A stretch of DNA of 62,901 bases from an uncultured Pseudomonadales bacterium. Lineage in GTDB: Bacteria > Patescibacteriota > Microgenomatia > UBA1400 > PJMF01. This document shows, one piece after another, positions 24,841 through 53,304 of this stretch (position 1 is its first letter; each line of letters starts with the position of its first letter). Where the stretch lies: the NCBI GenBank assembly GCA_964625685.1, contig CAZVBO010000001.1:1-62901 (forward strand), given 5' to 3'. The notes beneath the pieces were generated by a model, which saw only the letters and a program-made list of their open reading frames with translations, had not been told where the DNA came from and searched no databases. Position numbers and translations under genes: made by a program.

Positions 24841-26799
24841 CTAACTACTTGGTGGTACATAATCGTCGATTGTGGGATTTCCTTGAAAACCAGATCGAAT
24901 GCTTTGCTGAGTAGTCAAATCTTGGCTTGCTTGGGCTTGGTTTTGAGTAGCTGGTGGGGAAGTAGGAGTGTTGTGAATGGTTGTTTCAACTTTGTGTCTT
25001 CTTTGAAGGATTTCCTCAGGATTGGTGGTAATAACTGCGTGTTCCTGTTCGCTTGAAACAACTCGTAGTGCGACATGATTTTGACCAGCAAAGAAAATAC
25101 CCTCACCGACATCAGATGCTACTAAAAGTCGTCTTTCGCCTTCGGATAAATGAAAGGTCTCCGTTAAAATATCAAGGGCTGCGGTAGATTGTTTCATTAA
25201 AAACTGAATGGACGCATTGGTGACAATGGCTTTGCCATAGTCGTTATGCAAAAAATCTTCTACATCTTGGGTAATAGTAGTAATGCCCAAGTAGTATTTA
25301 CGAGCTCGTTTGACCATAGAATGAATAAATGAAGCGGAATCCTGGTGTTTCATGAAATACCAAGCCTCATCGATTACCAGTAATCTTTTTTTGAGATCCT
25401 TTTTGATTTTGGTCCAAATAAAATCCAAGATAATATACATGGCAATGGGTCTAAGTTCTTCATCGATCTCTTTAACCGAAAAAACGGTAAATTGATTATG
25501 AATATCTATGGTAGAGTGATGATCGAAAATACCCCGGAAGGAGCCAGAAATGTATTTTTCCAGACGAACGGCTAGATCGTTTGCATCTTCGTTTTCCATT
25601 CCGATCAAGGTCTTATACAAGTCTTCCATGAGAGGTGGTTCATTTGACTGGGTAGCTGGATCGGGAGTAATGCCTTTGGCTTTATAGGTTGCCACCAGAG
25701 CTCGATCAAGCAATGCCTCTTGTTGATCACTCATTTCACCCAACATCACTTTGAGTAAACCATGAAGGTTGATAATTTTATGACCCAACTCGTTTTCGCC
25801 TTCTTCATACACGGCTGATAGGTCAAACGGATTGATGGTATATTCAGCATTAAAGGTGAAGTTGAGGTATTCTCCGCCAACTGATTTTGCCAATTCTTCG
25901 TACTCTTGTTCAGGATCTAGTACTAAAATATCAATTCCAAACATGAGCTGGCGGATGACTTCCAATTTAACGGTGTATGATTTTCCAGCACCAGATTTAG
26001 CAAAGACGACCATATTGGCATTTTCCATTTGGAATCGATCAAAAATAACCAATGAATCATTGTGTTCATTAATTCCATAGAGAATTCCGGTTTCCATTGT
26101 CAGCTCAGAAGAAGTAAATGGGAATGTAGTGGCCAATGAGGTGGTATCCATATTCCGAGTAATCAACAACTTATCTACACCCATAGGCAGAGTTGTTTTA
26201 AAACCATCGGCCATTTGGAGGGTGGTCTTTTTGGATACAATCATCAAAGCACCCAGTGTAGATTGAATGTTTTTGGTAATTTTATCGAGTTCTTCCTTAG
26301 AATTTGCTTGAATAGTGACATATAGGCCAAATTGAAAAAACTTTTCTGAGCCTTTGGCTAGTTCCTCTCTGATATAGCGAGCATCTTCAAGTTTAACTTC
26401 GGTATTAATATTACTGATTTTCCCGGAACGGACATCAGAAGTGATTTCAGCTTCCATTTCAGTAATTTTTCGCTTCAAGTTATCCAAAACCTCTTTTGAA
26501 TCAACTGGAAAAACAAACATGGAAATATTAAGTTTGTTAGGATAATTGATCAAGGGAGCGAGCCAGTTAGCGGGCACCGACCGAGGGTAGCCAGCCACAA
26601 AAAGAGTTCGAGTATAGGTGGAATTTATTTTCTGAAAGGTGAAGTCAACTTCAATGGCCTCTGGAGCAATAATGTCTTGAATAGTAACTAACCCCCGAGA
26701 GAACTCCTCGAGTTTTTGGCGGTTTTGTTCTTCAAGACTAGGCTGAGTGTTTTCATCCTTTTTTTTGCCAAATGGTAACGACAAATTTAAACTGGGCAT
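24841..26799 (-). CDS. virB4: VirB4/TraE-family type IV secretion ATPase
   Basis: About 652 aa with Walker A FAKSGAGKSYT, Walker B LLVIDEAWYF and GITTITQD. The N-terminal IAPEAIEVDF...RTLFVAGYP pattern is typical of Gram-positive VirB4 homologues. The ORF-track start at 26802 is TTG; ATG is at 26799. Confidence 0.8.
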   Translation of the reverse strand: MPSLNLSLPFGKKKDENTQPSLEEQNRQKLEEFSRGLVTIQDIIAPEAIEVDFTFQKINSTYTRTLFVAGYPRSVPANWLAPLINYPNKLNISMFVFPVDSKEVLDNLKRKITEMEAEITSDVRSGKISNINTEVKLEDARYIREELAKGSEKFFQFGLYVTIQANSKEELDKITKNIQSTLGALMIVSKKTTLQMADGFKTTLPMGVDKLLITRNMDTTSLATTFPFTSSELTMETGILYGINEHNDSLVIFDRFQMENANMVVFAKSGAGKSYTVKLEVIRQLMFGIDILVLDPEQEYEELAKSVGGEYLNFTFNAEYTINPFDLSAVYEEGENELGHKIINLHGLLKVMLGEMSDQQEALLDRALVATYKAKGITPDPATQSNEPPLMEDLYKTLIGMENEDANDLAVRLEKYISGSFRGIFDHHSTIDIHNQFTVFSVKEIDEELRPIAMYIILDFIWTKIKKDLKKRLLVIDEAWYFMKHQDSASFIHSMVKRARKYYLGITTITQDVEDFLHNDYGKAIVTNASIQFLMKQSTAALDILTETFHLSEGERRLLVASDVGEGIFFAGQNHVALRVVSSEQEHAVITTNPEEILQRRHKVETTIHNTPTSPPATQNQAQASQDLTTQQSIRSGFQGNPTIDDYVPPSS

Positions 26800-26805
26800 C
26801 AATTT

Positions 26806-26811
26806 ATTGTA
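26806..26811 (-). promoter_or_regulatory. -10 hexamer TACAAT 6 nt upstream of the ATG of the VirB4 gene (leaderless candidate)
   Basis: The minus strand reads TACAAT aaattg ATG. Confidence 0.4.
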
Positions 26812-26852
26812 CCAGCATCATGGGTTCAGGAAAATCCGAAAAACAGCGCTGC

Positions 26853-28217
26853 TTAAATTTCTGGAAGCTGTGGCATCGCATCTGTGTTTGTCGCAGCCGG
26901 TTGAGCTGGGGTGGGTGGTTGGGAGTTGGCTGGCTCAACGGGGGTGGAAGTTGATTCAGCTGAAGTTGGCTGAGTCGGTGGCACACTTGGTGTCCCCGTC
27001 GCTGCTGGAGTTTGAGCACTTCCTGGCTGAGAAAGTGGAGCTTCCGAATGAGTTCCTAATTCTTGAATGGTGCTATTAATGGCAGATTGGGCATCCTCTA
27101 CAGTAGGTGGTGTGGGAGTACTACTCACGGCAGTTTGTCCACTAGCGGGTGTCTCAGTTTGTGTTTCTGTTGACGCGGCAACAACTTCTTCTGGGGTTGG
27201 AGTTGGTTTTGTGGGAGACTGAACAGAGGTGGTTGTAGCCGGTTGAGCTGGGGTGGGTGGTTGTGAGTTGGCTGGCTCAACAGGGGTGGAAGTTGATTGA
27301 GCTGAAGTTGGCTGAGTTGTGCTTGGAGCAGGTGAAGGAGTTTTTTCATTAGAAATAGGAATGTCAGCCATAGGAGCGGTGGGCGTGCTGGGCTCTGGAA
27401 CCGGACTGATTGGTTGTGCTTGCGGCGGGGTTTGTTGCACCGGTTGTGGCACTGTTGGGGCCTGAGGTGTCTGTGCTGGTTGATTTGGGTTGGTTGAATC
27501 AGTCATAAAATTTCCTTGTACCCTCGCCTTGACTAATGGCGTGGTGTAATTTCTACTATCGGTGAGGTTCTGGCCTTCGACAGCTTCTGGATTATACGAA
27601 GTATAAAAGAGCTGAATAATTTCCTGTGTGTCTAATTGACGAGCATATAAACCAATTCGGTTGAATTGAGAAATGAGGTGATCTCGTTTTGGTTCTAGGT
27701 TATTCCTTGCTTTTTCTAAAATATAGCTTCTTTCAAAAGAGTCAACACTGGTGGTTTTAACACCAGGGATTACGCTTTGTGGAGTAACAATACCCATTTC
27801 CAGTGCAGTGGAGGGAATAACCACGTAAAACTTTTTATCAAGTACATTTCTTTCTTGAATAAGTTCTGCCACAAAATTTTTGTATTCAGAAATTTGACTT
27901 TTTTTTAGCTTCGAAGTGGTTTCTTCAATTTGGTCCTGAAGTAACTGTAAATAGTTAGTGACATCCTTGGTTTGTGACTTAATTAAAATTTGAATAGGAT
28001 ATGTCAGTGAATTAAGTAAACTAGCGTAAGCATAAATAATTCCATCTTGTTCTTCTTCAGCCAATAATCCAAAGTTAAGAGCATCCACAGTTAAAACAAC
28101 TGCAGTTGAGCCATCTTTCATGATAATGACATTATTAGTCACATCGTAAATGTCTAAAAACTGCTGTGTAGTAGAGTGAATTGAGTTTTTCGCCATAGAT
28201 TCTAGGATCAATTCCAT
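26853..28217 (-). CDS. Hypothetical T4SS-associated protein: ~230-aa globular N-terminal part plus a ~220-aa Pro/Thr/Gln/Ser-rich repetitive tail
   Basis: 454-aa ORF directly upstream of virB4. The tail contains a duplicated QPTSA(Q/E)STSTPVEPANSQPPTPAQPA unit. Confidence 0.6.
   Translation of the reverse strand: MELILESMAKNSIHSTTQQFLDIYDVTNNVIIMKDGSTAVVLTVDALNFGLLAEEEQDGIIYAYASLLNSLTYPIQILIKSQTKDVTNYLQLLQDQIEETTSKLKKSQISEYKNFVAELIQERNVLDKKFYVVIPSTALEMGIVTPQSVIPGVKTTSVDSFERSYILEKARNNLEPKRDHLISQFNRIGLYARQLDTQEIIQLFYTSYNPEAVEGQNLTDSRNYTTPLVKARVQGNFMTDSTNPNQPAQTPQAPTVPQPVQQTPPQAQPISPVPEPSTPTAPMADIPISNEKTPSPAPSTTQPTSAQSTSTPVEPANSQPPTPAQPATTTSVQSPTKPTPTPEEVVAASTETQTETPASGQTAVSSTPTPPTVEDAQSAINSTIQELGTHSEAPLSQPGSAQTPAATGTPSVPPTQPTSAESTSTPVEPANSQPPTPAQPAATNTDAMPQLPEI
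26896..26975. repeat. Intragenic 80-bp direct repeat, copy A
   Basis: 77/80 identity with 27238-27317 (gccggttgagctggggtgggtggttg...). Confidence 0.9.
27238..27317. repeat. Intragenic 80-bp direct repeat, copy B
   Basis: 77/80 identity with 26896-26975. Confidence 0.9.
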
Positions 28218-28251
28218 TTAAGCAAAAAAAACTGCTTTTGATAAGGTTGGA

Positions 28252-29376
28252 TTAGGCCTCTGCCGGAATAGCACCTCTGATCTCAATGGGGGGCACTATT
28301 TTATTTTTGATTTCCAGTTGCTGATCAGTAAAGTCGTACCCATCTTTTTCAGCTGAAACTACATAAATACCAGGATTGAGTGGAGTAGTTACAAAAAACT
28401 GACCCAATGTATTAGACTTGATCGCTCTGACGACAGCACCATTCATGTTTTTAATTTCAATAATCGCATTAGAGAGTATTTTGTTATTTGGGCCTAAAAC
28501 CATTCCCACCGGCTTATTTGGTTCATCTGGTAGCGAGGGAAAAGGAAGATCTTGATTATAAGTGGTTTGACTAGTTTGATCCTGTTGAATTTGTTGTGTG
28601 TGTTGCTGACTTTGACTGTAAACCCGGTTTTCCTCTGTAGGAGCATTAGCAACGCCAACCAGTGTTTCTTCTTGAGCTTGGGATTTGGGCATTTTAACAG
28701 CACTCATATAAGGGATTTCTACGTCCGCAGCCACTTGCGATAAATCAATTGCTTTTTGAGAAATAGTTTGATCTGGAGTCGGAGTAGAGTCAACCAAATC
28801 ATTTTTGAGTCTCTTTTTGGCTTTTAAATCACGAACTCGAACCGTTAAGTTTGGTTTTTCCACTTGTTGTTCAACATTGGTAGCTTGGTAGGACTTAACA
28901 GTGTTAAAAGTATTTAACACATAATCAACTCGTTGTTGTTCATATTGATCATAGGCATCTTCGGGTAGTGGTTGTTGAATAGAAGTCATAAACTCCTTGA
29001 TTCGTTGACGGCGGGCAGGAGATAAATCAAGTTCAGGTTCTACTGGTTTGGTGGTACTTGGTTGGTATTTAAAGACATCAGGAATTCGAGGTTCTCGTTT
29101 CCAGAAAAACTTAGTGGGGGTATAAATAACTTTAAAAAAAGTGGCTATCCAGTGATCAAGTGGTCTTTCTTCAAATGGCACAAAGGCGGCACCCGCACCA
29201 ATAGCAACAGCTATCCCAATTAATGGCCACTTTATAAAATCAAGTAAGTTGGTGGTGTAAATCAAAAAACCCGCAAAGCAGCCAGCCCCAATTTCAGCAA
29301 ATTGCTTGAGGGTCATATTGCCTACAATATGAAACTGATACCCAGTAATATCCTGGGGCAATGGGTGTTCTTGCAT
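28252..29376 (-). CDS. PrgI-family (VirB3-like) membrane protein fused to a C-terminal carboxypeptidase-regulatory-like beta-sandwich
   Basis: 374-aa ORF. The N-terminus HPLPQDITGYQFHIVGNMTLKQFAEIGAGCFAGFLIY plus two TM helices fits the PrgI pattern. The C-terminus reads IIEIKNMNGAVVRAIKSNTLGQFFVTTPLNPGIYVVSAEKDGYDF. Confidence 0.55.
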   Translation of the reverse strand: MQEHPLPQDITGYQFHIVGNMTLKQFAEIGAGCFAGFLIYTTNLLDFIKWPLIGIAVAIGAGAAFVPFEERPLDHWIATFFKVIYTPTKFFWKREPRIPDVFKYQPSTTKPVEPELDLSPARRQRIKEFMTSIQQPLPEDAYDQYEQQRVDYVLNTFNTVKSYQATNVEQQVEKPNLTVRVRDLKAKKRLKNDLVDSTPTPDQTISQKAIDLSQVAADVEIPYMSAVKMPKSQAQEETLVGVANAPTEENRVYSQSQQHTQQIQQDQTSQTTYNQDLPFPSLPDEPNKPVGMVLGPNNKILSNAIIEIKNMNGAVVRAIKSNTLGQFFVTTPLNPGIYVVSAEKDGYDFTDQQLEIKNKIVPPIEIRGAIPAEA

Positions 29377-29383
29377 CGCTACT

Positions 29384-29392
29384 ATCTTACCA
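29384..29392 (-). promoter_or_regulatory. Extended -10 (TGgTAAGAT) 7 nt upstream of the ATG of 28252..29376 (leaderless candidate)
   Basis: The minus strand reads TGGTAAGAT agtagcg ATG. Confidence 0.4.
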
Positions 29393-29421
29393 GAAAATTA
29401 GGCAAGACGGGGATGGGGGAT

Positions 29422-30405
29422 TTAGTTGGGAGTGGATATTGTTTCCACAGCTGGAGTAATAAGTTCCACCATATATTTATTATTGTCAGAATTATAGAGA
29501 GTTCCGGAGAAACGATAGTAGGGAAGAATATACCCAGTGGTTTCATCTACTCGATATTCAAGTGAAACAGTTGTTAAATCTCCACGAACAATTTCATCTA
29601 GAGTTATGTCGATTGTTGTTTCAACCCCTGCACTAATAATGGTTCCTTGATTTTTGGTATTAATATTCTCAATAGCCTGATCAATGCCAATCAGATTTTT
29701 TTCACCAAGGGTTTCAAATGTAACAATATTGGGAGTAAAAGAGACAGTAGAAACATTGCCCGACATGTCGAGGGTAACAAAAAAGGGGACTTCAGCTCTG
29801 CCTTCAAACATGACTGGAATACCTTCTACCGTCTGAGCAAAAGGAATTTTCACAGCTGTGGCATTTTCATAAGTTGTTACCTCTGGGTGTTCCTCGGGTT
29901 CGAGATAATAAGTAATTTGATCGGTTAGGGGAGAGAGTTCTAATGAAAGTAGGTCAAGCAGATAGGCTTGAGCTTGACCGATAAGATCTGTCTGACTTAG
30001 CTTGAAATCACCTGTGTCAGTGATTGGTGCTACCACTAAAAAATATGATTTGTTAAATCGGTCATAGGTGAGTGATTGCCCTTGATCATTTTGCCAGTAG
30101 TTATTGGCCAAAGTAGTTTTTTTAAGATTAAGCTTGGTAGTTATTTGTTGTTCTAATAACTGTGCATTGGTGTCTTGAATTTGTTTCATGATGGGAGCTT
30201 TTGTAGAGAAAGATGGGGAAGATCCACTGTACGAGATATTACTAAAAGTGGTAGTTCCGCCCACAATATTCTGGGTAAGTGTTTCTGATGTGGGTTCGGG
30301 AACCGTAATAGTTTGTGGGGTCATTAAGCGCAAAATGACAGAACTAATTAAGAGGACCACTAGAATGGTAATAAAAATTGTAAGCAGTTTTTTATTGGTT
30401 TTCAT
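29422..30405 (-). CDS. Hypothetical N-terminally anchored extracytoplasmic protein of the T4SS-like locus
   Basis: 327-aa ORF with a single N-terminal TM helix (LLTIFITILVVLLISSVILRL). Its start overlaps the upstream gene's end by 14 nt. Confidence 0.55.
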   Translation of the reverse strand: MKTNKKLLTIFITILVVLLISSVILRLMTPQTITVPEPTSETLTQNIVGGTTTFSNISYSGSSPSFSTKAPIMKQIQDTNAQLLEQQITTKLNLKKTTLANNYWQNDQGQSLTYDRFNKSYFLVVAPITDTGDFKLSQTDLIGQAQAYLLDLLSLELSPLTDQITYYLEPEEHPEVTTYENATAVKIPFAQTVEGIPVMFEGRAEVPFFVTLDMSGNVSTVSFTPNIVTFETLGEKNLIGIDQAIENINTKNQGTIISAGVETTIDITLDEIVRGDLTTVSLEYRVDETTGYILPYYRFSGTLYNSDNNKYMVELITPAVETISTPN

Positions 30406-33400
30406 AACAACTTCTTACAGCTCCTAACCGAATACTTTTCCCTGGTACGTATTGACTCATATCTAAAGTGGAAGGTCTTAACTCCCAGTGCAAATGGGTA
30501 TTTCCTACTACCCCATAACTAGCTCCTAAGAATATTAAACCCGAGTATCCGGCCTCTCCAATTTGGTCCCCTGCCTTTACGGGAAGGGTTGTTTGGCCAT
30601 TGATGATGGTTTTTTCTTGGGTTTCCCCATCAACAATGTATAAATCATTCATGTGGGCGTAGAGAAATTCCACATTCCCGGTCTTGATTGAGACATGATT
30701 TCCATAGCAAAAAGAACTATTTGCACACTGATATCCTGTTCCTTGAGGATAGAAAGTAGCAGAACCGTTCATAGAACTAAATACCGGAGCTCCTAGTTGG
30801 GTAGCGATATCAACTGCCGCGACTAACGAATGCGTACAGGAATAACCAGCAGCTTTTGGTTGACAAAAAGGCCCTTGCATCAGAACACCACTGACGGGCC
30901 AGCAGCCTTCTTGGGCTTGGGGACATTCGCCGAAACACACAGACTCTCCTGTAGTTGCAGTTCTAATCTCGCTCATTTGGACACTGGCGGGAGAGGCATT
31001 CGGATCGGGGATTTGGCTCATCGGCAAGCCATCTTCCTCATTGGGATTTTGACTCATTGGTGCCTCATCAACATTTTCTTCAGGTACAGCAAAAAAGAGT
31101 TTAAAGGTGTTTACCACATTAGCATCGTGGTGATCGGTTTGATTGAAGGACTCAGTATAAGGTTGGAGGGTCATTGAGTCTCCCTCTTCAATGGTAAAGG
31201 GAAAACTTAATGGATTCCCATTTTCATCTTTAAAAAAAGTAGCATCGTGGTTTCTGTTCTCAGGTTCTTTTTCATTTTTTTCTTGATTGTAAGAGATAGT
31301 CATTGAGTCTGACATTTGGTTCACCACAACAGAATAGCCTTTATTAGCCTTAATGGTAATGGTATAGGTAATATCTTGAGCCATTGCCATTTTAATACCA
31401 GGCTCAGCCGCTTTTTCAATCGTGACATATTGGGATTCTCCCACACCTTCATCTCCAATGGTCGGCATCAGAAAAGCACCTTGCTGAATAGTATTAAAAG
31501 CAAAGGCAGTTGCAGTTACCGCAGTAGTAGTGGCAATAAAAGCCCCCGTAGGAGTAGCTAAGTATGGTGTGGAAGTAGTAGAAACCCCCGTTTGAGTGGC
31601 CAGGGTAGCTGTGGAGGCAGACGTTGTGCCTCCAAAGCTAAATCCTTTAGTTAGTCCATGAAAGCCCAAAATACTATCTGGTAAAATAGCGGCACCAGCA
31701 TTGGTTCCAATGGCCCAACCAGATAGTGTTCCACCACCAATTCCAAAAGGGGTCCCACTTAAGGTTCCTAGAAAAGCTCCGATTCCTCCGCCAACTACTC
31801 CTCCAATAAAGCCACCGGCCGTGGAGACAAAAAGTCGAATAGTATTGGCGATAAAACCAGCTATTGCTGCAGAGATACCTCCGGCAATTGCATTCCGGGC
31901 TTTTTTATTGGGAATAAGGGCCAGTAAACCGGAAACAACACCACCCAGCCCAGGAACTGCTAGATTTGATAAAAAAGCAGCAGATCTTTCTAAAACAGAG
32001 GATTTAATAGCGTCCGAAGCTCTTTTCGCCGGACTTAAACGCCGCTTAAATCTTTTAAAAGGATTGAGTGTGGATTTAATACTCTTATCCTGAGTCCCCT
32101 GTTGTAATTGAGACACAACATCTGCAAAGATAAAGACTTGAGGAACCGCAGAATAGTCGATCAATTGGCGAGGTTCTCTATTAGCCAAAGAAGCCCAAAA
32201 TCGATTTTCTCTTTTGGTGGGAAGCTCCTTATCAGCAAAATAAGTTTGATAAAGATAGCTCTTTTCCTCATGGGTGAGCGATAACCAAAACTGTTCGGCT
32301 GCTAATCTTTTTTTCCAATAGACTTCTTGTTCTTCGTCCTGAAGTTTTTTTAGCTCTTTATACGATTTCTCTGGCCCATAGGTTGTGGTAAGAACAGCAT
32401 ATCTCTTTTCTTTTGCAGTTTTGCCGACACCATATTCAGAAGTTAAAAATTCTTGTACAGCTGCTTCGTCATACCGTTTAAGAAGTTCTCGAACTGCTTC
32501 CTCAGAATCTGGGTTAGCCAAGTATTCGGCTAAGTGCTGCTGCGAAATCTCTTTTTGAATTTGTTGCTGAGTTTCCTCAGCTGATTGAGTCTCTGGGGCT
32601 TTGGAAGGTTCTGCTTTTCTAAGAGTTTGAAGTAAACTTTGGAGCTGAGCTTGAAAGGTTGGGTCGCTATTGAGTTTTGCGGTTATTTGTCTTAATAGAA
32701 AATAACGAGCAGACCCTGGATTGGCAATAATTCTTTGAAAATCTTCAAAGCTCAATGTTTCCAAGTATTGTGATACTTGGTCCGCAAACAAAGCGCGGAG
32801 ATTGGGAGGAAGTTGCTCAAGAGTCAGTTCTCCAAATAAATCAGGATAAGTGGCACGATAACTAATCAATAAGACATTTTGCAGACGCATCAATTCAGCA
32901 GTGCTACTGGTGTGTTGACCTAAAATAGCTAGAGCTGCAGATCTTTTTTCCGCAGCTGACAAGCCTTGCCACCATTCTGAGGTAAATTGATTATTGGTTG
33001 GAGGTTGAGTGAAACCTGATTTTGTAAGAAGTGCGGAAATCTGATCGGGAACAAGAGCCGTGTCTGGTCCCGTTACTCGTTCTTCAATGGGACCTTCTGC
33101 TTGTTGAAAATTACGGATATTTTCTACTGCTTGGGCAAGGAGATTCTCTTCATCGAAAGATAAGGTGTGAACAGCCGCATCAACCAGTTGACTGGCATAG
33201 TCTTTTTGCCAACTTTTGAAAGAATCGTTAGTGGTGACTTCATCTGTATCTGGATTGTAGTAATTTTGTGTGGTGTTGTTTTCATCAAACTGAAGGTTTT
33301 TAATGGTTGCTTCAACATCAAATGGGAGTTGCTGAATGAATGCTTGGAGCTCTGATTTAACAAGCTCTTCAATGGTAGTTTTATCGATTCCTATTGCTTG

Positions 33401-34783
33401 GTAATTAAAATCCTGAGCGTCAATGTAAGCCGAAAGATTGAGTTGTTGATAGAGCTTCTCAGTAGCCAGACGGAGTGTTTCGACTACTACAAAATTTAAA
33501 GTCTGGGTCTGTGATTGAGTGGGAGTGGAAGGTTCATCTGGTCCGCCACCCTCAGATTCAGAAACCCCATAGAGTGCTTCAATGGGGGGATAGGTGAGAG
33601 TGGCTTCTCCCAACAATTTACTTACCAACCCAGAATCAATATAAAAAGCTTGAAAAAGGTTGCTTTTCTGAACATCTGTTTGGTTAAAAGTATTTTCAGG
33701 ATCTGGATATGTTGGTCCAGCTTCTTCTGGGAAAATAAAATTAGGAGTTTCTTGTTGAAGAGTTTGCTGTTCTGATTTGGTGAAAAGAGTATCTAAAACA
33801 TACTGTGGTAATCTTTGTTCATATTCTTGAGCCGCTGGTTCATAAATATATCTTTGATATGCTTCCTGATTTTCATTTCGATTGGTGACAAAATCTTGAG
33901 TTGAGTAAAAGGTCTCGTAACGTTGAATCAGGGCTGTCCACAAATGATTTTGGATTTCATTTAAACTCCTCTGAGGAACGAACGAGGATAAGTTATTGAT
34001 CTGGGTTTGAGAAATTTTTGTTACCTGTTCTTGAATCTGTTTGGTAAAAGCATTAAAAACCTGGCGAACTTGTTTGTTGGCTGGGTTCTGACCAGAAACA
34101 GTGTCGAGGAGAGGAATAGGACCAGATAATTTAGTGAAAGATTGGGCAGGGTCAGTTGGTGTTTCTTTAAACGAATTAAAAAGTGGGAGAATATTTTGCT
34201 CCCATGTTTGTAAAGCATTGACTGGTCCAAGATCAATTTGGGAAAGGAGTGGTTGGAGATTGGCAAATTGACCTTCAGTAACTTCAGAAGGGAAGATTTG
34301 GTCTAGGGTTTTTAATAAAAGTCCAACTACAGATTCCAGTCTCGGTCGATAGGTGGTAATGATTTTTGCCTCATCTTGAGACAGGTCTGATAGTTCATCC
34401 CGGAATGTTTGAAGATCACTGTTTGGTTGAGTCAACTGAATCGGAAGTTTCTTACTCCGAATAGCATTGTCAATCCATGAAGAGACCGTCAGCAAGCTAC
34501 TGACTAAATCACTACCATAGAAAATATCTCGTTGTTTTTCTGTATCTAACTCTCGTTCTTCATACTTAATCTCAAATTCCCGATTTTGATTATTAACAAT
34601 TAAATCGGTAGGGCCATAACTAATTCCAAGTGGGGGAACAATTTCAAAACGAGAAAAATTATTGGCAGAAAGGCTGCTGAGAAAATGACGAATTGATTCG
34701 GCAGCAGCTAAAACCTTTTCAGGTTCCTGCTCAATTGGGATATGGAGCTGTTTGAGGATAATTCGTTGCGATTCGTCAGCCAT
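30392..34783 (-). CDS. Giant (1463-aa) T4SS-associated protein: long cytoplasmic unknown region, Gly-rich multi-TM block and a C-terminal M23 (LytM-type) peptidase
   Basis: M23 motifs near the C-terminus are HSLVAAVDI (HxxxD) and NTHLHWELR (HxH). The Gly-rich hydrophobic block reads GGVVSGLLALIP...GGFIGGVVGGGIGAFLGTLSG. Confidence 0.75.
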   Translation of the reverse strand: MADESQRIILKQLHIPIEQEPEKVLAAAESIRHFLSSLSANNFSRFEIVPPLGISYGPTDLIVNNQNREFEIKYEERELDTEKQRDIFYGSDLVSSLLTVSSWIDNAIRSKKLPIQLTQPNSDLQTFRDELSDLSQDEAKIITTYRPRLESVVGLLLKTLDQIFPSEVTEGQFANLQPLLSQIDLGPVNALQTWEQNILPLFNSFKETPTDPAQSFTKLSGPIPLLDTVSGQNPANKQVRQVFNAFTKQIQEQVTKISQTQINNLSSFVPQRSLNEIQNHLWTALIQRYETFYSTQDFVTNRNENQEAYQRYIYEPAAQEYEQRLPQYVLDTLFTKSEQQTLQQETPNFIFPEEAGPTYPDPENTFNQTDVQKSNLFQAFYIDSGLVSKLLGEATLTYPPIEALYGVSESEGGGPDEPSTPTQSQTQTLNFVVVETLRLATEKLYQQLNLSAYIDAQDFNYQAIGIDKTTIEELVKSELQAFIQQLPFDVEATIKNLQFDENNTTQNYYNPDTDEVTTNDSFKSWQKDYASQLVDAAVHTLSFDEENLLAQAVENIRNFQQAEGPIEERVTGPDTALVPDQISALLTKSGFTQPPTNNQFTSEWWQGLSAAEKRSAALAILGQHTSSTAELMRLQNVLLISYRATYPDLFGELTLEQLPPNLRALFADQVSQYLETLSFEDFQRIIANPGSARYFLLRQITAKLNSDPTFQAQLQSLLQTLRKAEPSKAPETQSAEETQQQIQKEISQQHLAEYLANPDSEEAVRELLKRYDEAAVQEFLTSEYGVGKTAKEKRYAVLTTTYGPEKSYKELKKLQDEEQEVYWKKRLAAEQFWLSLTHEEKSYLYQTYFADKELPTKRENRFWASLANREPRQLIDYSAVPQVFIFADVVSQLQQGTQDKSIKSTLNPFKRFKRRLSPAKRASDAIKSSVLERSAAFLSNLAVPGLGGVVSGLLALIPNKKARNAIAGGISAAIAGFIANTIRLFVSTAGGFIGGVVGGGIGAFLGTLSGTPFGIGGGTLSGWAIGTNAGAAILPDSILGFHGLTKGFSFGGTTSASTATLATQTGVSTTSTPYLATPTGAFIATTTAVTATAFAFNTIQQGAFLMPTIGDEGVGESQYVTIEKAAEPGIKMAMAQDITYTITIKANKGYSVVVNQMSDSMTISYNQEKNEKEPENRNHDATFFKDENGNPLSFPFTIEEGDSMTLQPYTESFNQTDHHDANVVNTFKLFFAVPEENVDEAPMSQNPNEEDGLPMSQIPDPNASPASVQMSEIRTATTGESVCFGECPQAQEGCWPVSGVLMQGPFCQPKAAGYSCTHSLVAAVDIATQLGAPVFSSMNGSATFYPQGTGYQCANSSFCYGNHVSIKTGNVEFLYAHMNDLYIVDGETQEKTIINGQTTLPVKAGDQIGEAGYSGLIFLGASYGVVGNTHLHWELRPSTLDMSQYVPGKSIRLGAVRSCYENQ

Positions 34784-34796: not shown

Positions 34797-34830
34797 ACTT
34801 GAATGGGAAAGAAAGACGAATGATTTTACT

Positions 34831-34900
34831 TAAATTCCAAATGCCAAAATTCAAACATCAAATAAATTCCAAACTCCAAATTCCAATTTTTCTGGCTTTC
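34831..34900. repeat. A/T-rich UUCCAAA-type repeat (intergenic copy)
   Basis: TTAAATTCCAAATGCCAAAATTCAAACATCAAATAAATTCCAAACTCCAAATTCCAATTTTTCTGGCTTT. Confidence 0.6.
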
Positions 34901-36830
34901 AACCTTCCTCCAGGTTGTTTTTCAAATTAGAGTGATGTTTTTGCTCTCGATACTGTTTTACCCATATTTTTTCTAAAACTTCTAAAATTTCTCTTGAATT
35001 TGTGAGTGAAGTCAACAACTCGTAGTCTTTTTCTTGTAGCCAGAATCTTGCCTCTTGGCTCACCAGATCGCTATTAAGGAGTTCTTGAAAACTTAACGTT
35101 GGTTTTAGAATTTTTTCTTGAATTTGGTGAAAAGTTAGCCAAATGAAATAATTGTTAGGGTCCTCATCGGTTACCTGTTCTTGTAAGTGCTGTTCAATTT
35201 CATCAAATTGAGCCTGCTGAGTTTCTTGTTGGAGTGTGCTGAGGAGTTCATCATACTGCTGCTTGGTGAGTGGCATGGCCAGTTGCTCAAGAGGATCATC
35301 TAAAGGAATACCAAACGGATACTCTGGAGTAACACAAGGACCGTAAACTTTCCCTTTTTCCATAATTATTCCATTTTTAACTTCACCAGTTCCGACCCTA
35401 CAACCAGGTGCCTCTAAGTAACTAGTGGGAACCATCCAAATTTGGCTCGCTCCCGCTGCTGTCAGATCTAGCTCAATATATTCTGCTTGGTCAAGCTGCT
35501 TGAGTAACTCTTGCTTGTTTGTTAATGACAGAGCATTGAGTTCTATCTTTAGACCGGCAAGATTATTGACTTTGAGAGCTAGTGACACTGGTGAAAAGAT
35601 GCCACATTGAGCTAAAGAAAACATGCGATTACTCACCATAAAAAAAGTATTGAGTTCTTTCAGTTTCCCGATTTGGGCTGGGGTAAGTTTCTGACCAACC
35701 AGAATCTGTAGCTGAAGTGCTGTTTTTTCTTGATACCGATTAAATATTTGGTTTAGTGTTAGTTTTTCAATTTGCTTCTGAGATGTTTTTTTCTTTTCAT
35801 TCGTTGGTAAAAATTGCTCTCCATACTTCAACATCGTTTGAAAAGCTGAAGAAAAAAGTACATCAAGGTGTTTGAGTTGCTGCTGCAACTTTTTTTCATC
35901 CTGATTGGTAAAGATGGGGAGAACAGCTTGAAAATAATGTTCAAAAATTTGTTGACTCAACTGGTTGAATTCCTCAATATTTAAATCGGGAAACTGACTA
36001 CGATTGACCGGCCACTTGGTCTCATGTTGATAAAGCAGTGCTTCCAACATTTCAGTTGAAAAGTCGGTGGAAAGCTCAATCAAATGATCAATAATATGTA
36101 ATTCAGGTGCTAACTGGATTTCGTCAGACAGTGTTCCTGGATACAACTTCCCTTGATATTGATCGAAAAGTAGCTGCTGAAGAGTTGTAAGTTCAGTATT
36201 ATCTGACCAAACCTTGAACTGCTGGTAAATGACTCCTCCCTCTAGATCTTTATAATAGTAGTTAATCATTACTGGGTTTTTTCTATCTGTTCCCGGATAT
36301 CCTTCGGTCTTTTTGCCTCTGGGACTAACCCAAATGAGAACAGAGTTCACTGATCTAGGGTCATTTATCCAGTGGGTGAGTCGTTGCATGTTGTTATTTT
36401 CCACTTCAGCTCTAGAAAGTTCACCACCTTTCTGTTGCTGATTTTCCACAAAGCCTTGACCAATTTTAGGGAGTTCTTCTTGATAACTGTGATCGACACC
36501 TGTAGTGAAGAGTTCATACGTAGGTGTTTTCCAGAAAAATGTTTCATGAAGTAGAGTTTGCCAGTCCATCCATAATGCAGATTTGATTGCCTCAGGAGAC
36601 TCATATTCAGTGTGAGTAAAACGGTCCAGTAGTGCTTTAGAGTTCCATACATTTACTCGGGACTCCAAGCCCCGTATTTTTCGAGAAAAGTAGCTCAAGC
36701 GATTTTTTTGTTTATCGGCCTGAGAAAGAATCCTTTCGACAAAGTGCAACAAGAAAAAATCTGGTGATCTTTTAGGAGGTGTTACTGGTTGTACCTCTTG
36801 GATGGAAGAATAAATTTCGGCTGTGGTCAC
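34899..36830 (-). CDS. Hypothetical 643-aa soluble protein (GTG start) directly downstream of the riboswitch candidate
   Basis: Long uninterrupted ORF with no TM helix or signal peptide and no recognisable motif. The only SD (AGGAG, 6 nt from GTG) lies in the 3' arm of the leader hairpin. Confidence 0.65.
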   Translation of the reverse strand: MTTAEIYSSIQEVQPVTPPKRSPDFFLLHFVERILSQADKQKNRLSYFSRKIRGLESRVNVWNSKALLDRFTHTEYESPEAIKSALWMDWQTLLHETFFWKTPTYELFTTGVDHSYQEELPKIGQGFVENQQQKGGELSRAEVENNNMQRLTHWINDPRSVNSVLIWVSPRGKKTEGYPGTDRKNPVMINYYYKDLEGGVIYQQFKVWSDNTELTTLQQLLFDQYQGKLYPGTLSDEIQLAPELHIIDHLIELSTDFSTEMLEALLYQHETKWPVNRSQFPDLNIEEFNQLSQQIFEHYFQAVLPIFTNQDEKKLQQQLKHLDVLFSSAFQTMLKYGEQFLPTNEKKKTSQKQIEKLTLNQIFNRYQEKTALQLQILVGQKLTPAQIGKLKELNTFFMVSNRMFSLAQCGIFSPVSLALKVNNLAGLKIELNALSLTNKQELLKQLDQAEYIELDLTAAGASQIWMVPTSYLEAPGCRVGTGEVKNGIIMEKGKVYGPCVTPEYPFGIPLDDPLEQLAMPLTKQQYDELLSTLQQETQQAQFDEIEQHLQEQVTDEDPNNYFIWLTFHQIQEKILKPTLSFQELLNSDLVSQEARFWLQEKDYELLTSLTNSREILEVLEKIWVKQYREQKHHSNLKNNLEEG

Positions 36831-36995
36831 AAAAAACTCCTCGAAATGAGGAGCAATGCGGGGTAAAGTTATTCATTAGGCAGATAAACCCCGATGCTCG
36901 TCGGATTGAACCACTTTTGAAGACCGGACTAGTCGAGTTTTACTCGCTTCACCGTTGCGGCACAGTCTGGGATTTTGACCCAACTTCCACAAAAA
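36831..36995 (-). promoter_or_regulatory. Cobalamin-riboswitch-like leader with an SD-sequestering/terminator hairpin
   Basis: The minus-strand RNA reads GGAAGUUGGGUCAAAAUCCCAGACUGUGCCGCAACGGUGAAGCGAGUAAAACUCGACUAGUCCGG.... This matches the B12-element core pattern GGAA-N3-GGUG-N-AAAUCC-N3-..CUG-N2-CCGCAACGGUAA. It ends in CUCCUC-auuuc-GAGGAG-UUUUUU immediately before the GTG start. Confidence 0.5.
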
Positions 36996-37069
36996 TGGCT
37001 AAAAAAAACAATCTAAAGTATACATAGCATGGAGAATAGAGAATAGTCTAGTGGAGAAAAACCTATGAT

Positions 37070-37185
37070 TAAAATCCAAAGTTCAAATTCCAAGTACCAA
37101 ACAAAAATCAAAATACAAAAACTCAAGTAAAAATGAACTTTGATATTTGTAGTTTGTTTGATTTTTGGTTTTTGGAACTTGATAT
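37070..37185. repeat. A/T-rich palindromic UUCCAAA/UUUGGAA repeat (intergenic copy)
   Basis: The left arm AAAATCCAAAGTTCAAATTCCAAGTACCAAACAAAAATCAAA faces the right arm TTTGATATTTGTAGTTTGTTTGATTTTTGGTTTTTGGAACTTGA. Confidence 0.65.
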
Positions 37186-37229
37186 TTATTGTGTGAGTCT
37201 CTACTAGACTCAAACAATCTGTTGTGTTT

Positions 37230-50362: not shown

Positions 50363-50824
50363 TTACTGAGGTCCGTTTTCCGTCCATTGGGTTGAGGAAT
50401 CGGGAATGGTAAAGTTAAGGAGGGTATCAATACCGGTAAATTGAGAAATAATATTTACAATAAAGTAAGCACTTAAGGCTACTACTAAACCAATAACTGC
50501 ATACGTCATGGTCTTTCGAGCCGAGTCCATCCCCTTTGAATCCCCGCCTGAGATCATCATTCTAAAGGCAGCAAAAATCATCATCACAAAACCGATGATT
50601 CCGATGAGGGTCACGAACACCATTAAAATATTTCCAATCAAGCATTGCAAACCTTGGATGGTAGCCACGTCTGAGCCTTTATAGACACACACACTTCCTT
50701 CAGATTGCCAGTTTGCTGTTTGAGCAAAGGTAGGGGCTGGAGTGATCATGCTGATGAATACAGTCAACACGAGCATCATTAGTATTTTTTTGGTTACAGA
50801 AACAATATAAGAACGCTTTTTCAT
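50363..50824 (-). CDS. T4SS pilin-like protein, paralog 1 (TrbC/VirB2-like, CPR T4SS-pilin type)
   Basis: Start taken at the ATG at 50824 (MKKRSYIV...). It has a signal peptide ending TFAQ and the core motif ISGGDSKGMDSARKTMTYAVIGLVVALSAYF between two TM helices. Confidence 0.65.
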   Translation of the reverse strand: MKKRSYIVSVTKKILMMLVLTVFISMITPAPTFAQTANWQSEGSVCVYKGSDVATIQGLQCLIGNILMVFVTLIGIIGFVMMIFAAFRMMISGGDSKGMDSARKTMTYAVIGLVVALSAYFIVNIISQFTGIDTLLNFTIPDSSTQWTENGPQ

Positions 50825-50834
50825 AGTGGCTTCA

Positions 50835-51344
50835 TTACTCAATAGTAGTGGTATCTCCTTCAATAGTCCGGATGTTGGTAAAAACATCATTGAGCGATTC
50901 AAAACCTAAGAAGTTGACTATGAGGTTGATTACAGCAAAAGAAGCGGCAATAATCAGCAAACCAATAATGGCTGAAATGATCTTTTGTCGAGCGCTATCT
51001 GTTTTACTTTTATCGCCGCCAGAGGTGATCCAGTTTAAGGCCCCCCAGATGAGGTAAAAGAAAACCAGTAGAGCAGCAATCACCATAATAACGCTTAGTA
51101 ACCCGTTAATTAGCCCACTAAAACTCTCAGCAAAGCCTTCTGGAACTTGAATGATGTCTGTATTCGTTGAAGCAGTTGAGTCACTTGCGACCAGGGTGAC
51201 AGTATCGACATCTTTAGAGAGGTAAATAATATCGCCATCTCTCACAACATTACCTTTAGTGGTTTGAGCGGAAACAGGCAGAGTAAAGAGTAGACTAGCA
51301 GAAAGTATGGAAAGTCCAATTATTAAGTTCAGGGTTTTTTTCAT
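50835..51344 (-). CDS. T4SS pilin-like protein, paralog 2
   Basis: Signal peptide ending VSAQ. Core motif WITSGGDKSKTDSARQKIISAIIGLLIIAASF. Confidence 0.7.
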   Translation of the reverse strand: MKKTLNLIIGLSILSASLLFTLPVSAQTTKGNVVRDGDIIYLSKDVDTVTLVASDSTASTNTDIIQVPEGFAESFSGLINGLLSVIMVIAALLVFFYLIWGALNWITSGGDKSKTDSARQKIISAIIGLLIIAASFAVINLIVNFLGFESLNDVFTNIRTIEGDTTTIE

Positions 51345-51384
51345 AATGTATAGCTTCTTTATTGCTACGTACTTTAGATTATAA

Positions 51385-51418
51385 CAAAAAAGCTCTCTGG
51401 ATTGGAGAGAGCTTTTTT
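51385..51418. terminator. Rho-independent (bidirectional) terminator after pilin paralog 3
   Basis: AAAAAAGCTCTCTggattggAGAGAGCTTTTTT, an 8-bp perfect stem. Confidence 0.75.
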
Positions 51419-51433
51419 CATAAATATTTTAAC

Positions 51434-51784
51434 TTATTTGAGTTTTGTCTCAGTGTTATTGATATCTCGGACATTTTCAAAAGCTTGATTTACACCATCA
51501 AAACCTAAGAAGTTGAACAGTAGCTGCAGAATGGCATAAGAGGCAGCTAAGATGATTAAACCGATCACTGCTGAAGTAATTTTGTTACGGGCTTTTTCGG
51601 TCTGACCTTTATCACCACCAGAGGTGATCCATTCAATTCCACCCAAGATGAGGTAGAAGAAGACCAATAAAGCAGCTAAGACCATTACAAAACTTAAGAC
51701 ACCATTAATTAAACCACCAAAGGATTCAGCAAATCCTTGCCCGGGATCAATGGTTAGGGCATAAACTTGTGGAAGTAGATTCAT
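51434..51784 (-). CDS. T4SS pilin-like protein, paralog 3 (candidate major pilin)
   Basis: ATG at 51784 with the SD GGAG 6 nt upstream (the ORF-track start at 51796 is TTG). Core motif WITSGGDKGQTEKARNKITSAVIGLIILAASY. No Cys-rich extension. Confidence 0.7.
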   Translation of the reverse strand: MNLLPQVYALTIDPGQGFAESFGGLINGVLSFVMVLAALLVFFYLILGGIEWITSGGDKGQTEKARNKITSAVIGLIILAASYAILQLLFNFLGFDGVNQAFENVRDINNTETKLK

Positions 51785-51817
51785 ATTTTTCTCCAATTTT
51801 GCTTCTTACTACCAGGT

Positions 51818-51847
51818 ATTATACAAACGAGTGTAGCTAGAAGTCAA
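51818..51847 (-). promoter_or_regulatory. Near-consensus sigma-70 promoter of pilin paralog 3
   Basis: The minus strand reads TTGACT (51847-51842), an 18-nt spacer, then TATAAT (51823-51818). Confidence 0.6.
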
Positions 51848-51865
51848 CTTTTTAATTATTATTTG

Positions 51866-52375
51866 TTAATTATTTAAAACACAGCAATATCTTGATCCTG
51901 AACAATTCATTTGACCAATACTTCGGTGGGTTGCCGGACAGGTTGTCATACAAGCTCCATTATTGGCTGCACAGGAGGTAGCTGGATCAAGTTGTCTCAC
52001 TGTTCGTTCGCTTGAATTCGTAGATCCACCGGGAATGGAAATAACTTCAATACCCAGTAATGACTGCACGACCATAAAGATAGCAAAAGTAGCGGCTAAG
52101 ACAATGATTCCAATGATGGACTGAATAATTTTGTCACGGGCTTTGCCTAATTTGCCGCTATCACCTCCGGCGGTAATCCATTCAATTCCTCCCCAAATAA
52201 GGTAGAGAAGAACGAGTAAAGCAGCAATAACCATAACGGCACTGACGATGCCACTAATAAAGGTGCCAAATCCAGTTTCGGGATTGGTTGCATCAACCGC
52301 TCCAGTACCGGCTAAACCTTGGTCAGCAGCTTCTTGGTACAGATCTATGGTAGTTTGAGCTAAAAGGCTGAGCAT
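51866..52375 (-). CDS. T4SS pilin-like protein, paralog 4, with a C-terminal 6-Cys module
   Basis: Core motif WITAGGDSGKLGKARDKIIQSIIGIIVLAATF. C-terminus SCAANNGACMTTCPATHRSIGQMNCSGSRYCCVLNN. Confidence 0.7.
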   Translation of the reverse strand: MLSLLAQTTIDLYQEAADQGLAGTGAVDATNPETGFGTFISGIVSAVMVIAALLVLLYLIWGGIEWITAGGDSGKLGKARDKIIQSIIGIIVLAATFAIFMVVQSLLGIEVISIPGGSTNSSERTVRQLDPATSCAANNGACMTTCPATHRSIGQMNCSGSRYCCVLNN

Positions 52376-52381
52376 AATTAT

Positions 52382-52906
52382 TTAAAAGCTCGGCAGTGAG
52401 ATTCTGAGTAGATCAAACTCACCACCAAAGAATACTTGCCCGATATAGGAAATAATGACGAAAGAACCCACAAGTACCACTAAACCGATAATTGATTGCG
52501 TGATTTTGTCCCTAGCTTTCCCGACTTTACTACTATCGCCTCCGGCTGTAATCCACTCAATTGCCCCCCAGAGGAACATGATAATGACAGCAAGTCCTCC
52601 AATATTGATAATGGCTTGCCAAATAACGATAAGATATCGTTGAAAGGTGCTGCCTTCCTCAGCCGCAATAGGGTCATCTCCCAAGTTTCCAATAACTGGA
52701 TTGGTTAAGCCACCCTCAGTATTACGGGTGCCACCTGCTGGTTCATTCATACATCCAGTAATACACTGCTGTCTCTGAACTGTATCGGTAATAAAACGGC
52801 ATTGATCATTACACGCTGATTGTGAGTTTTGAGCTTGAACTGGTTGAAGCCCACTAAATAAATAAAAGAAAGAAATGAGAAATGCGAATGTAAAAAGTTT
52901 TTTCAT
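52382..52906 (-). CDS. T4SS pilin-like protein, paralog 5, with an N-terminal twin-CX3C module
   Basis: Signal peptide ending VQAQ, then CNDQC-x11-CITGC. Core motif WITAGGDSSKVGKARDKITQSIIGLVVLVGSF. Confidence 0.7.
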   Translation of the reverse strand: MKKLFTFAFLISFFYLFSGLQPVQAQNSQSACNDQCRFITDTVQRQQCITGCMNEPAGGTRNTEGGLTNPVIGNLGDDPIAAEEGSTFQRYLIVIWQAIINIGGLAVIIMFLWGAIEWITAGGDSSKVGKARDKITQSIIGLVVLVGSFVIISYIGQVFFGGEFDLLRISLPSF

Positions 52907-52912
52907 AAAAAT

Positions 52913-53272
52913 TTAAGGTATTAATGCTCTCAGTGCAGCTGCAGGCATAAGTAAATTAAACCCAATAATATTTCCGACAATTCCAATAATGCTATAGGCA
53001 GCCACTACAACGACCAATCCAATGACCCCTTGAATCATTTGATTGCGGGCTTTACCAACTTTACCACTATCTCCACCAGCCGTAATCCAAGTCAAGCCTC
53101 CAATTAAGAAATAAACAATAAAGAAAATTCCGCCCAAAATAGTTAAAAAACCAATGATATTAGAAATAAAAGATTCAAGATTGGTTAGAGCCATATCTCC
53201 CGCTTCTGATCCGGCACTGTAAGCTTCAGATGGTGGAGAAAAAGTTCCAAGTGATTCTGCAAGTAATGGCAT
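52913..53272 (-). CDS. T4SS pilin-like protein, paralog 6
   Basis: Core motif WITAGGDSGKVGKARNQMIQGVIGLVVVVAAY. Confidence 0.7.
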   Translation of the reverse strand: MPLLAESLGTFSPPSEAYSAGSEAGDMALTNLESFISNIIGFLTILGGIFFIVYFLIGGLTWITAGGDSGKVGKARNQMIQGVIGLVVVVAAYSIIGIVGNIIGFNLLMPAAALRALIP

Positions 53273-53304
53273 AACAATATTATTTATCGACTAGTTTATA
53301 TTAA

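Follow-up and report, generated by a model that had tools for sequence, protein, structure and literature searches.

What does the leader of a gene at the head of a type IV secretion system (T4SS)-like locus sense, and how much of that locus does it govern? The question is raised by a 62,901-nt stretch of contig CAZVBO010000001.1 (assembly GCA_964625685.1), hereafter the window, which is deposited as an uncultured Pseudomonadales bacterium and placed by GTDB in the Patescibacteriota, and whose genome is of the Candidate Phyla Radiation (CPR) type. A minus-strand open reading frame (ORF) of 643 amino acids with a GTG start at 36830 (34899..36830) is the first gene of a T4SS-like operon, and a preliminary description had called its leader cobalamin-riboswitch-like. 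Our analysis agrees: judged by sequence and predicted structure, the minus-strand segment 36998..36831 belongs to a known class, the cobalamin (B12) riboswitches. We consider it a functional corrinoid riboswitch of the cobalamin clan acting as an OFF switch on the 643-amino-acid gene, a reading that we hold with a probability of roughly 0.8. Direct support comes from the match in sequence and structure, the covariation of the helices, the conservation of the expression platform and the energetics of folding.

Identification of the Leader

Read along the minus strand, the leader upstream of the 643-amino-acid ORF is AGCCAUUUUUGUGGAAGUUGGGUCAAAAUCCCAGACUGUGCCGCAACGGUGAAGCGAGUAAAACUCGACUAGUCCGGUCUUCAAAAGUGGUUCAAUCCGACGAGCAUCGGGGUUUAUCUGCCUAAUGAAUAACUUUACCCCGCAUUGCUCCUCAUUUCGAGGAGUUUUUUGUG. 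When positions 36700-37300 were scanned permissively against Rfam, it aligned with RF01482 (AdoCbl) at 36886..37013(-), across the full model (positions 1-149), with 49.9 bits and E=3.4e-8. Two overlapping hits with lower scores, both to families within this clan, were suppressed; all other Rfam families gave a best E-value of at least 0.12. The gathering score of RF01482 is 50, and it is because the window leader lies 0.1 bit below this threshold that it escapes automatic annotation; a scan of the whole window at gathering thresholds lists 23S rRNA and tRNA only, the riboswitch being absent. Searching with the cobalamin models thus supports the assignment through the E-value and through related leaders that pass the curated thresholds, while the window leader itself stays at 49.9 against 50. 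A covariance model built from the window sequence finds this leader as its only site in the window.

The 64-nt string, the CUCCUC-AUUUC-GAGGAG hairpin, the U6 run and the GTG start quoted in the preliminary description all lie on the minus strand where it had placed them. Its leader span, ending at 36995, is mostly right; the aptamer begins slightly beyond, at about 36998, with the 5′ strand of P1. Its assignment to the class-II/AdoCbl-variant forms was imprecise; the window matches RF01482, and a related leader (L069) passes RF01689.

Architecture of the Aptamer

The elements of the aptamer were placed by Rfam alignment and, for P1, P4 and P6, by covariation as well (all coordinates on the minus strand). 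P1 pairs CCAUUUUU (36991..36998) with AAAAGUGG (36911..36918), the second strand preceded by J6/1 (GUCUUC). The junction GUGGAAG and the P4/L4 hairpin UUGGG-UCAAAAU-CCCAG, which bears the GGUnAAAAUCC motif, together occupy 36967..36990 (hairpin at 36983-36967); they are followed by P5/L5, UGUGCCGCA (36956..36964), whose loop UGCCG forms the aptamer side of a predicted kissing loop. P6 (36925..36954) consists of a CGG...CCG base and a hairpin, CGAG-UAAAA-CUCG; the B12-box core AGUCCG ends it at 36930..36925(-), and the longer core AGUCCGG is present. Conserved nucleotides of the junction and of the B12 box agree with the family consensus in the Rfam alignment. The preliminary description had found no GCCACUG box; the box does occur, as CCGCAACGGU (GCAACGG), and the pairs closing P6 are CGG/CCG where the consensus has CUG/CAG. 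It had correctly seen that a peripheral extension is lacking, the P6 of the window having no large one; related leaders have P6 elements as short as 2 nt and as long as 230 nt.

A 5-nt linker (UUCAA, 36906..36910) leads from P1 to the regulatory hairpin P13/L13, UCCGA-CGAGCA-UCGGG (36890..36905), which is marked by a constant loop and a covarying stem in about 90 loci. In homologous leaders Infernal places the CGAGCA loop on L13 of RF01482, where the consensus is CGAGGcA. L5 (UGCCG) and L13 (CG[A]GCA) are complementary, with five possible pairs and one bulged A; relative to the consensus UCCCG/CGAGGcA, a C-to-G change in the one is matched by a G-to-C change in the other, a compensatory difference.

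Related Leaders and Covariation

A search for the core string AAAATCCNNNNCTGTGCCGCAACGGT, made in a single genome from each GTDB species, gave 90 loci, labelled as Saccharibacteria, many other Patescibacteria, Armatimonadota, Bdellovibrionota, Dormibacteria and several "Pseudomonadales" metagenome-assembled genomes (MAGs) with CPR-type loci. Every one of these core-pattern loci that has enough sequence carries a P13 hairpin with a constant CGAGCA loop, set on stems that vary from locus to locus (UCC/GGA, CGA/UCG, CUA/UAG, CAA/UUG, AGC/GCU and others). A covariance model made from the window sequence alone and the proposed structure finds exactly one site per source in the 90 sources. In the resulting model-guided alignment of 90 sequences, standard pairs make up 93.2% of cells, against 65.2% after shuffling and 30-46% when the partners are slid by 1-3 columns; double changes occur in 20 of the 28 pairs, and the covariation score is 0.425 (0.096 shuffled). 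All five pairs of P13 and all four of the inner P6 stem covary, all eight P1 pairs show double compensatory changes, and three of five pairs covary in P4, where the remaining two are invariant GG/CC; P5 and the base of P6 are uninformative because the loci were chosen by their invariant core and the alignment is model-fitted. RNAalifold, run on a plain MAFFT alignment with no structure fitting, also recovered P4 and P13 with compensatory changes. It missed P1 and P6 because of misalignment, which the model-guided alignment solved, and by both routes covariation in homologous leaders is abundant.

Leaders found through the protein tell the same story. The two closest homologues of the 643-amino-acid protein have the same aptamer in their leaders, with visible compensatory changes (RF01482, 38.8 and 38.7 bits; E=1.4e-5), and the helices are maintained by such changes although the protein homologues share just 18-40% identity. 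When 19 loci were tested at the curated Rfam thresholds, six were called, spread over RF01482, RF01689 and RF00174, and 13 fell below. RF01482 is passed by L067 (50.2) and L048 (56.3), RF00174 by L074 and L014, and RF01689 by L069, a leader upstream of a 643-amino-acid-family gene (47.4 against a threshold of 36.5). On these scores we place the subclass within the cobalamin clan, in a part that the Rfam models capture poorly, and reject a new class.

Expression Platform and Proposed Switch

The leader ends in a predicted intrinsic terminator, GCUCCUC-AUUUC-GAGGAGU followed by U6 (36831..36854, minus strand), in which GAGGAG is the only Shine-Dalgarno and sits 6 nt before the GTG start. The preliminary description had proposed that this hairpin both terminates transcription and masks the ribosome-binding site. 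The layout is as it described, the hairpin (36854..36836) is the top terminator-like site of the minus strand within 24.5-37.3 kb, and the arrangement is conserved: CUCCUC...GAGGAG-U(n)-start is seen in at least 15 relatives, and relatives keep the order in which P13 is followed by (C)CC..(G)AUGCUC, itself joined to CUCCUC-loop-GAGGAG-U6-7-start. That account of the leader was sound for the core and the terminator hairpin but overlooked P13/L13 (36905..36890) and an antiterminator. The predicted 3′ strand of the antiterminator, CCCCGCAUUGCUC (36851..36863), is complementary to GAGCAUCGGGG (36899..36889) and overlaps GCUC, the first 4 nt of the 5′ arm of the terminator. Among relatives, the partner of the antiterminator overlaps the 5′ half of a terminator in 31 of 49 cases.

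Folding energies point to two competing states. For nascent RNA up to the terminator loop, the minimum free energy structure is the antiterminator (-18.1 kcal/mol, against -5.1 with P13 forced), whereas in the full leader P13 plus terminator is favoured (-21.3 against -18.3 kcal/mol for the antiterminator). So modelled, the leader is bistable, the arrangement expected of a kinetic switch.

In the mechanism that we propose, the aptamer (P1, P4/L4, P5/L5, short P6 and B12 box) would bind a corrinoid, and binding would bring L5 and L13 together in the kissing loop and lock P13. With P13 locked, CCCCGCAUUGCUC would be left free and GCUCCUC would pair with GAGGAGU to form the U6-tailed terminator, burying the only Shine-Dalgarno in the same hairpin. 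Because one hairpin would both terminate and hide the Shine-Dalgarno, transcription and translation of the 643-amino-acid gene, and of genes co-transcribed with it, would both be off. When ligand is absent, GAGCAUCGGGG, which comprises the 3′ half of P13 and L13, would instead pair with CCCCGCAUUGCUC as the antiterminator, and the gene would be expressed. What we infer is that a ligand is bound, that the kissing loop forms, that regulation has this sign and that transcription reads through into the T4SS-like genes.

A sigma-70-like promoter was sought for the leader and none was found; a TCCACT(A/G)GACT block common to the window and L001 is a candidate promoter at most. In one relative (L105, 5877-6001) the aptamer is present with neither a CGAGCA P13 nor a terminator ahead of the start codon, and its expression platform is different or degenerate.

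The Regulated Protein Family

The protein behind the leader belongs to a rare family. Word-indexed searches with the single sequence or with a 6-sequence profile returned 3 proteins only, and the word-indexed database gave two relatives at 70% and 32% identity; an exhaustive HMMER search revealed the family, with 95 clusters among 1.84 billion representative proteins. Pfam has no match for the 643-amino-acid protein and none that is credible among 49 aligned members, and NCBIfam has no match for the protein or its 49 relatives. The protein is soluble, with no transmembrane segment. In the family alignment R140, S169, Y178, C409, G497 and C499 are invariant and fall within the motifs SPRG..EGYPG and GC...GPC. 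AlphaFold2, supplied with this alignment, gave a confident model (predicted local distance difference test, 85.4; predicted template-modelling score, 0.71), for which Foldseek found no match in the PDB (best E=0.27; all TM-scores at most 0.12).

An aptamer lies upstream of every family member examined, the two closest homologues included. In eight members chosen by their protein (P0005, P0011, P0024, P0041, P0061, P0083, P0069 and P0036) it is directly upstream in all eight, with model E-values of 9e-11 to 7e-6, and several of these have L4 variants that the core DNA pattern could not reach. Among the core-pattern loci, seven have a gene of the family downstream (L012, L017, L025, L044, L049, L064 and L069).

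In L069 the family gene (about 4990-6600) is broken into three consecutive ORFs, which may reflect a pseudogene or assembly frameshifts. Seven MAGs labelled "uncultured Pseudomonadales" bear the riboswitch (L012, L017, L032, L044, L064, L069 and L083), with a CPR-type gene of the 643-amino-acid family downstream in L012, L017, L044, L064 and L069 and not in L032 and L083; their Pseudomonadales labels are probably wrong.

Extent of Control over the T4SS-like Operon

Downstream of the 643-amino-acid gene a block on the same strand (24841..34783) encodes, by Pfam, a 1,463-amino-acid Peptidase_M23 protein (30392..34783), a 327-amino-acid protein, PrgI (VirB3-like; 28252..29376), a TraC-like protein (PF26593, recorded for the 447-454-amino-acid gene) and a VirB4-like ATPase (24841..26802; P-loop_TraG, AAA_10 and CagE_TrbE_VirB). 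Five tandem T4SS_pilin genes (PF18895) lie at 50363..53952, also on the minus strand. The downstream locus has the component set of a Gram-positive/CPR-type T4SS; no VirD4-type coupling protein or relaxase was seen among the scanned ORFs, the scans covering part of the ORFs of the window. The locus is chromosomal; its VirB4-like gene adjoins dnaA, dnaN, rnpA and yidC. Gene order is kept in L001, L002, L097, L099, L100, L104 and L105; both of the closest homologues show it. Seven protein-sampled members have downstream DNA, and in six of these the giant M23 gene, a gene for a protein of about 330 amino acids and the PrgI-like, TraC-like and VirB4-like ATPase genes come next. The association with a gene heading a T4SS-like locus, which the preliminary description had left unexplained, is thus real and conserved (8/8 members; 6/7 loci).

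Does the switch reach the secretion genes? The riboswitch might control the 643-amino-acid gene alone, with the T4SS-like genes under a promoter of their own and the adjacency reflecting shared function or genome compaction. In the window, this gene and the next are 115 nt apart, and the gap is filled with a GGAATTTG repeat and has a promoter-like site at 34847..34820(-). A stand-alone gene of the family in L106 (1-11974) retains the riboswitch, the terminator and the same platform among folate and one-carbon genes (FolD, HPPK, DHPS and SHMT), with no T4SS genes. Two possibly related Saccharibacteria families, B and D, likewise have the riboswitch and no T4SS genes within reach. Against such restricted control stand the gap in relatives, where the M23 gene follows on the same strand after just 8-52 nt, the conserved gene order of the six loci, and a search for minus-strand terminator-like sites between the 643-amino-acid and M23 genes of the window, which found none. 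We give restricted control a real but minority chance. Since L106 keeps the riboswitch without the T4SS-like operon, the conserved direct target is the 643-amino-acid family itself. In relatives the switch is likely to control the T4SS-like genes as an operon too; this is less certain in the window, because there the repeat-filled 115-nt gap with its promoter-like site intervenes.

Level of Control and Ligand

The U-run might be a mere spacer between Shine-Dalgarno and start, with control exerted on translation only and no termination by the polymerase of this organism. CPR termination signals are uncharacterised, and at least one relative (L104) has no terminator: its GGAG lies in or adjoins the 3′ arm of P13, so that this version of the switch would act on translation alone, as in btuB and env8 (PMC10327014). 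The GC-rich 7-bp stem with its U6-U7 tail is, however, kept in many relatives, including those with a different start codon, and in the window it is the top terminator-like site on its strand in the surrounding 13 kb. Purely translational control is rather improbable for the window, and we retain a hairpin that would act at both levels.

The nature of the ligand is approached through other genes behind the same subclass. The subclass precedes TonB-dependent receptors whose best NCBIfam match is TIGR01779, the B12 receptor (E=2.5e-62; 211 bits, below the equivalog cut-off of 599.7), as well as MetE (cobalamin-independent methionine synthase), a ribonucleotide reductase and, in Parcubacteria, DUF4430 and transcobalamin-like proteins. 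These B12-related genes are seen for the subclass and not for the 643-amino-acid gene of the window.

An aptamer within the clan might still sense something other than a B12 coenzyme: cobinamide, a corrinoid with another lower ligand or a changed ligand, given L5 UGCCG and the core CUGUGCCGCAACGGU. Of CPR bacteria one would expect that they scavenge whatever the host produces. The 13 of 19 tested subclass loci below the Rfam thresholds would fit a shifted specificity. Corrinoid riboswitches are known to answer to several corrinoids, one of them to cobinamide (PMC10327014). The downstream receptor, MetE and DUF4430/transcobalamin-like genes argue against this, as do junction and B12-box nucleotides that follow the family consensus, and we see only a slim chance of a different ligand. 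That the aptamer is a decayed relic or a chance resemblance and the hairpin a constitutive attenuator, as a score just below the gathering threshold and the lack of a gene of known B12 link in the window might suggest, is negligible in the face of E=3.4e-8, compensatory changes across protein homologues of 18-40% identity, an invariant L13 loop and a conserved antiterminator.

Several points weigh against a B12-responsive OFF switch at this locus. The window leader lies 0.1 bit under the RF01482 threshold; the pair counts come from a model-fitted alignment; and neither L5 nor L13 varies among the collected sequences, giving no covariation for the kissing loop within the set, so that the loop is argued from complementarity and the single compensatory difference from the consensus. 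Antiterminator energies separate only modestly between cognate and non-cognate P13 (-11.7 against -10.6 kcal/mol), and crude tests of helix length, cognate against non-cognate, separate modestly as well. On the side of the genes, the 643-amino-acid protein has no recognisable B12 link, scans of window ORFs found no B12-dependent enzyme and no B12 transporter, and the 115-nt gap with its promoter-like site parts the gene from the next one.

Other Genes behind the Subclass

In Armatimonadota the subclass is directly upstream of prepilin-type proteins (N_methyl, DUF1559-like) in 12 of the 13 loci that have this family (including L019, L033, L039, L043, L046, L053, L066, L076, L085, L092 and L096); such proteins are not an obvious B12 target. 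In Saccharibacteria the usual gene after the riboswitch encodes family B or D, proteins of about 390-560 amino acids with Cys-rich or Zn-ribbon-like C-terminal ends (L014, L015, L023, L026-L031, L041, L051, L054, L058-L063, L068, L070, L072, L082, L084, L086, L091 and L094). One of the Saccharibacteria families is often trailed by a NadD-like cytidylyltransferase.

Families B and D are mutually homologous (hhalign probability 96.9%) and have no match in Pfam or NCBIfam. The 643-amino-acid family aligns with them over the N-terminal domain only (hhalign 51%, E=1.5e-4; hmmsearch E=8e-4 for two members), a weak, collinear similarity that leaves homology unproven. By eye, (S/F)SP(R/P)(G/P) can be picked out in the proteins of L010 and L018 and only SSPQ in that of L074, while a C-terminal CxxC..CxxC or GPC is seen in L018 and L074 and only GC in L010; this likeness to the 643-amino-acid family is a lead, not a finding.

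Biological Implications

The RNA is an ordinary, under-annotated cobalamin riboswitch with a known type of platform. Its interest comes from the gene behind it, a member of a rare family (about 95 clusters, no PDB-fold match) that has this RNA as its conserved leader and heads a CPR T4SS-like operon. A literature search found no paper linking B12 riboswitches to Patescibacteria/CPR or to type IV secretion, and the conserved link between the riboswitch and a CPR secretion-like locus is without counterpart in the literature searched. With a switch of defined ligand class heading a T4SS-like operon, it becomes a testable hypothesis that B12 scarcity induces the system. Our best guess is that the 643-amino-acid protein serves a function needed under B12 scarcity, tied here to a T4SS-like host-interaction machine.

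A more specific proposal, which we think unlikely as it stands, is that host-derived corrinoid acts as a feeding or satiety signal that shuts the T4SS-like machine, the 643-amino-acid protein being a new B12-linked component, for example one that takes up corrinoid or nutrients by way of the machine. The host would then be the sole possible source of intracellular corrinoid in this CPR lineage. The protein would belong to a wider CPR group under B12-riboswitch control, its members soluble and sharing a domain conserved at the N terminus (SPRG..EGYPG in the 643-amino-acid family, loosely similar in others) together with C-terminal cysteines or a Zn-ribbon-like CxxC...CxxC motif. If true, the proposal would provide the first regulatory and functional handle on the essential T4SS of Patescibacteria. 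The finding also flags a set of uncharacterised CPR proteins as B12-linked, and, because the curated Rfam thresholds miss 13 of 19 tested loci, B12 regulation in CPR genomes is probably under-counted.

Other Features of the Window

Divergent from the riboswitch-headed gene are three plus-strand genes (37224-43813; 492, 577 and 1,075 amino acids) that match nothing in Pfam or NCBIfam and whose products lack transmembrane segments. A divergent block of three genes (about 390-620, 410-940 and 1,040-1,360 amino acids) lies upstream in L002, L097, L102, L104 and L105, and L099 and L100 have two divergent upstream genes only; homology to those of the window was detected only in L012 (492-amino-acid gene) and L097 (1,075-amino-acid gene). 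The divergent upstream genes are probably part of the same system. An eight-transmembrane protein (43875-45422, minus strand), the T4SS pilins and a 1,194-amino-acid protein with a GH5 cellulase-like domain beside the pilin genes are further parts of the secretion/host-interaction region.

AT-rich repeat or palindromic elements (GGAATTTG/CAAATTCC) recur in the window, with 43 matches against about 6.5 in shuffles when one mismatch is allowed. They are found at 190-290, 960-1045, 1487-1583 (inside the 23S rRNA), 9277-9295, 19543-19707, 34831-34877 and 37075-37176, filling large 23S rRNA insertions and several intergenic gaps and occurring also just upstream of the riboswitch promoter area; the motif is present in L001 too. 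Compared with the bacterial model, the 23S rRNA (1-1764, minus strand) is enlarged by at least two long insertions (about 120 and 190 nt), as is typical of CPR, and a tRNA-Ala gene lies at 1989-2063. On the plus strand, HMG-CoA reductase, an HMG-CoA-synthase-like protein (ACP_syn_III_C) and thiolase are encoded in a row (56177-59543) that resembles a cluster for the mevalonate pathway, here in a CPR-like genome.

Comparison with Known Systems

The leader shares with the cobalamin clan CL00101 (RF01482, RF01689 AdoCbl-II and RF00174) the order and spacing of P1, the GGUnAAAAUCC hairpin, P5/L5, P6, AGUCCG and P13/L13. It departs from the clan in L5, which is UGCCG where the consensus of corrinoid riboswitches is UCCCG (PMC10327014), with the matching change in L13, and in a P6 base of CGG/CCG rather than CUG/CAG under a minimal P6 hairpin with no peripheral extension. 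Its subclass, moreover, is divided over the three Rfam models, and the curated thresholds miss most of its members.

The closest parallel in layout is metE of Priestia megaterium, a repressing transcriptional corrinoid riboswitch in which binding permits the L5-L13 kissing loop and so stabilises P13; its P13/antiterminator/terminator logic has been shown by mutagenesis (PMC10327014). The same layout is predicted for the window leader. Here, however, the 3′ arm of the terminator doubles as the Shine-Dalgarno and the U-tract as the spacer to the start codon, and it is for this reason that one hairpin could act at both levels. The window also differs in the bulged A of its predicted kissing loop and in a regulated gene that is not known to be B12-related.

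In btuB of Escherichia coli and in env8HyCbl, a P13 stabilised by the kissing loop controls access to the ribosome-binding site (PMC10327014). A bulge in L13 is described for env8 and predicted for the window too, and the relative L104 is similar to both systems, with its Shine-Dalgarno directly in or beside P13. In the window, by contrast, the Shine-Dalgarno belongs to a terminator hairpin of its own, which follows P13 at a distance of about 50 nt; the coupling would be indirect, by way of the antiterminator.

For the T4SS of Saccharibacteria, a 2024 review describes an essential system whose role is "completely unknown" and mentions no regulator (PMC11665869). The window shares with Saccharibacteria and other Patescibacteria a CPR-type genome, a chromosomal VirB4/PrgI/TraC-like locus and T4SS pilins. 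In the Saccharibacteria loci collected here the riboswitch stands before other proteins, with no T4SS genes within the 8-kb loci; in the window a predicted metabolite sensor heads the operon itself.

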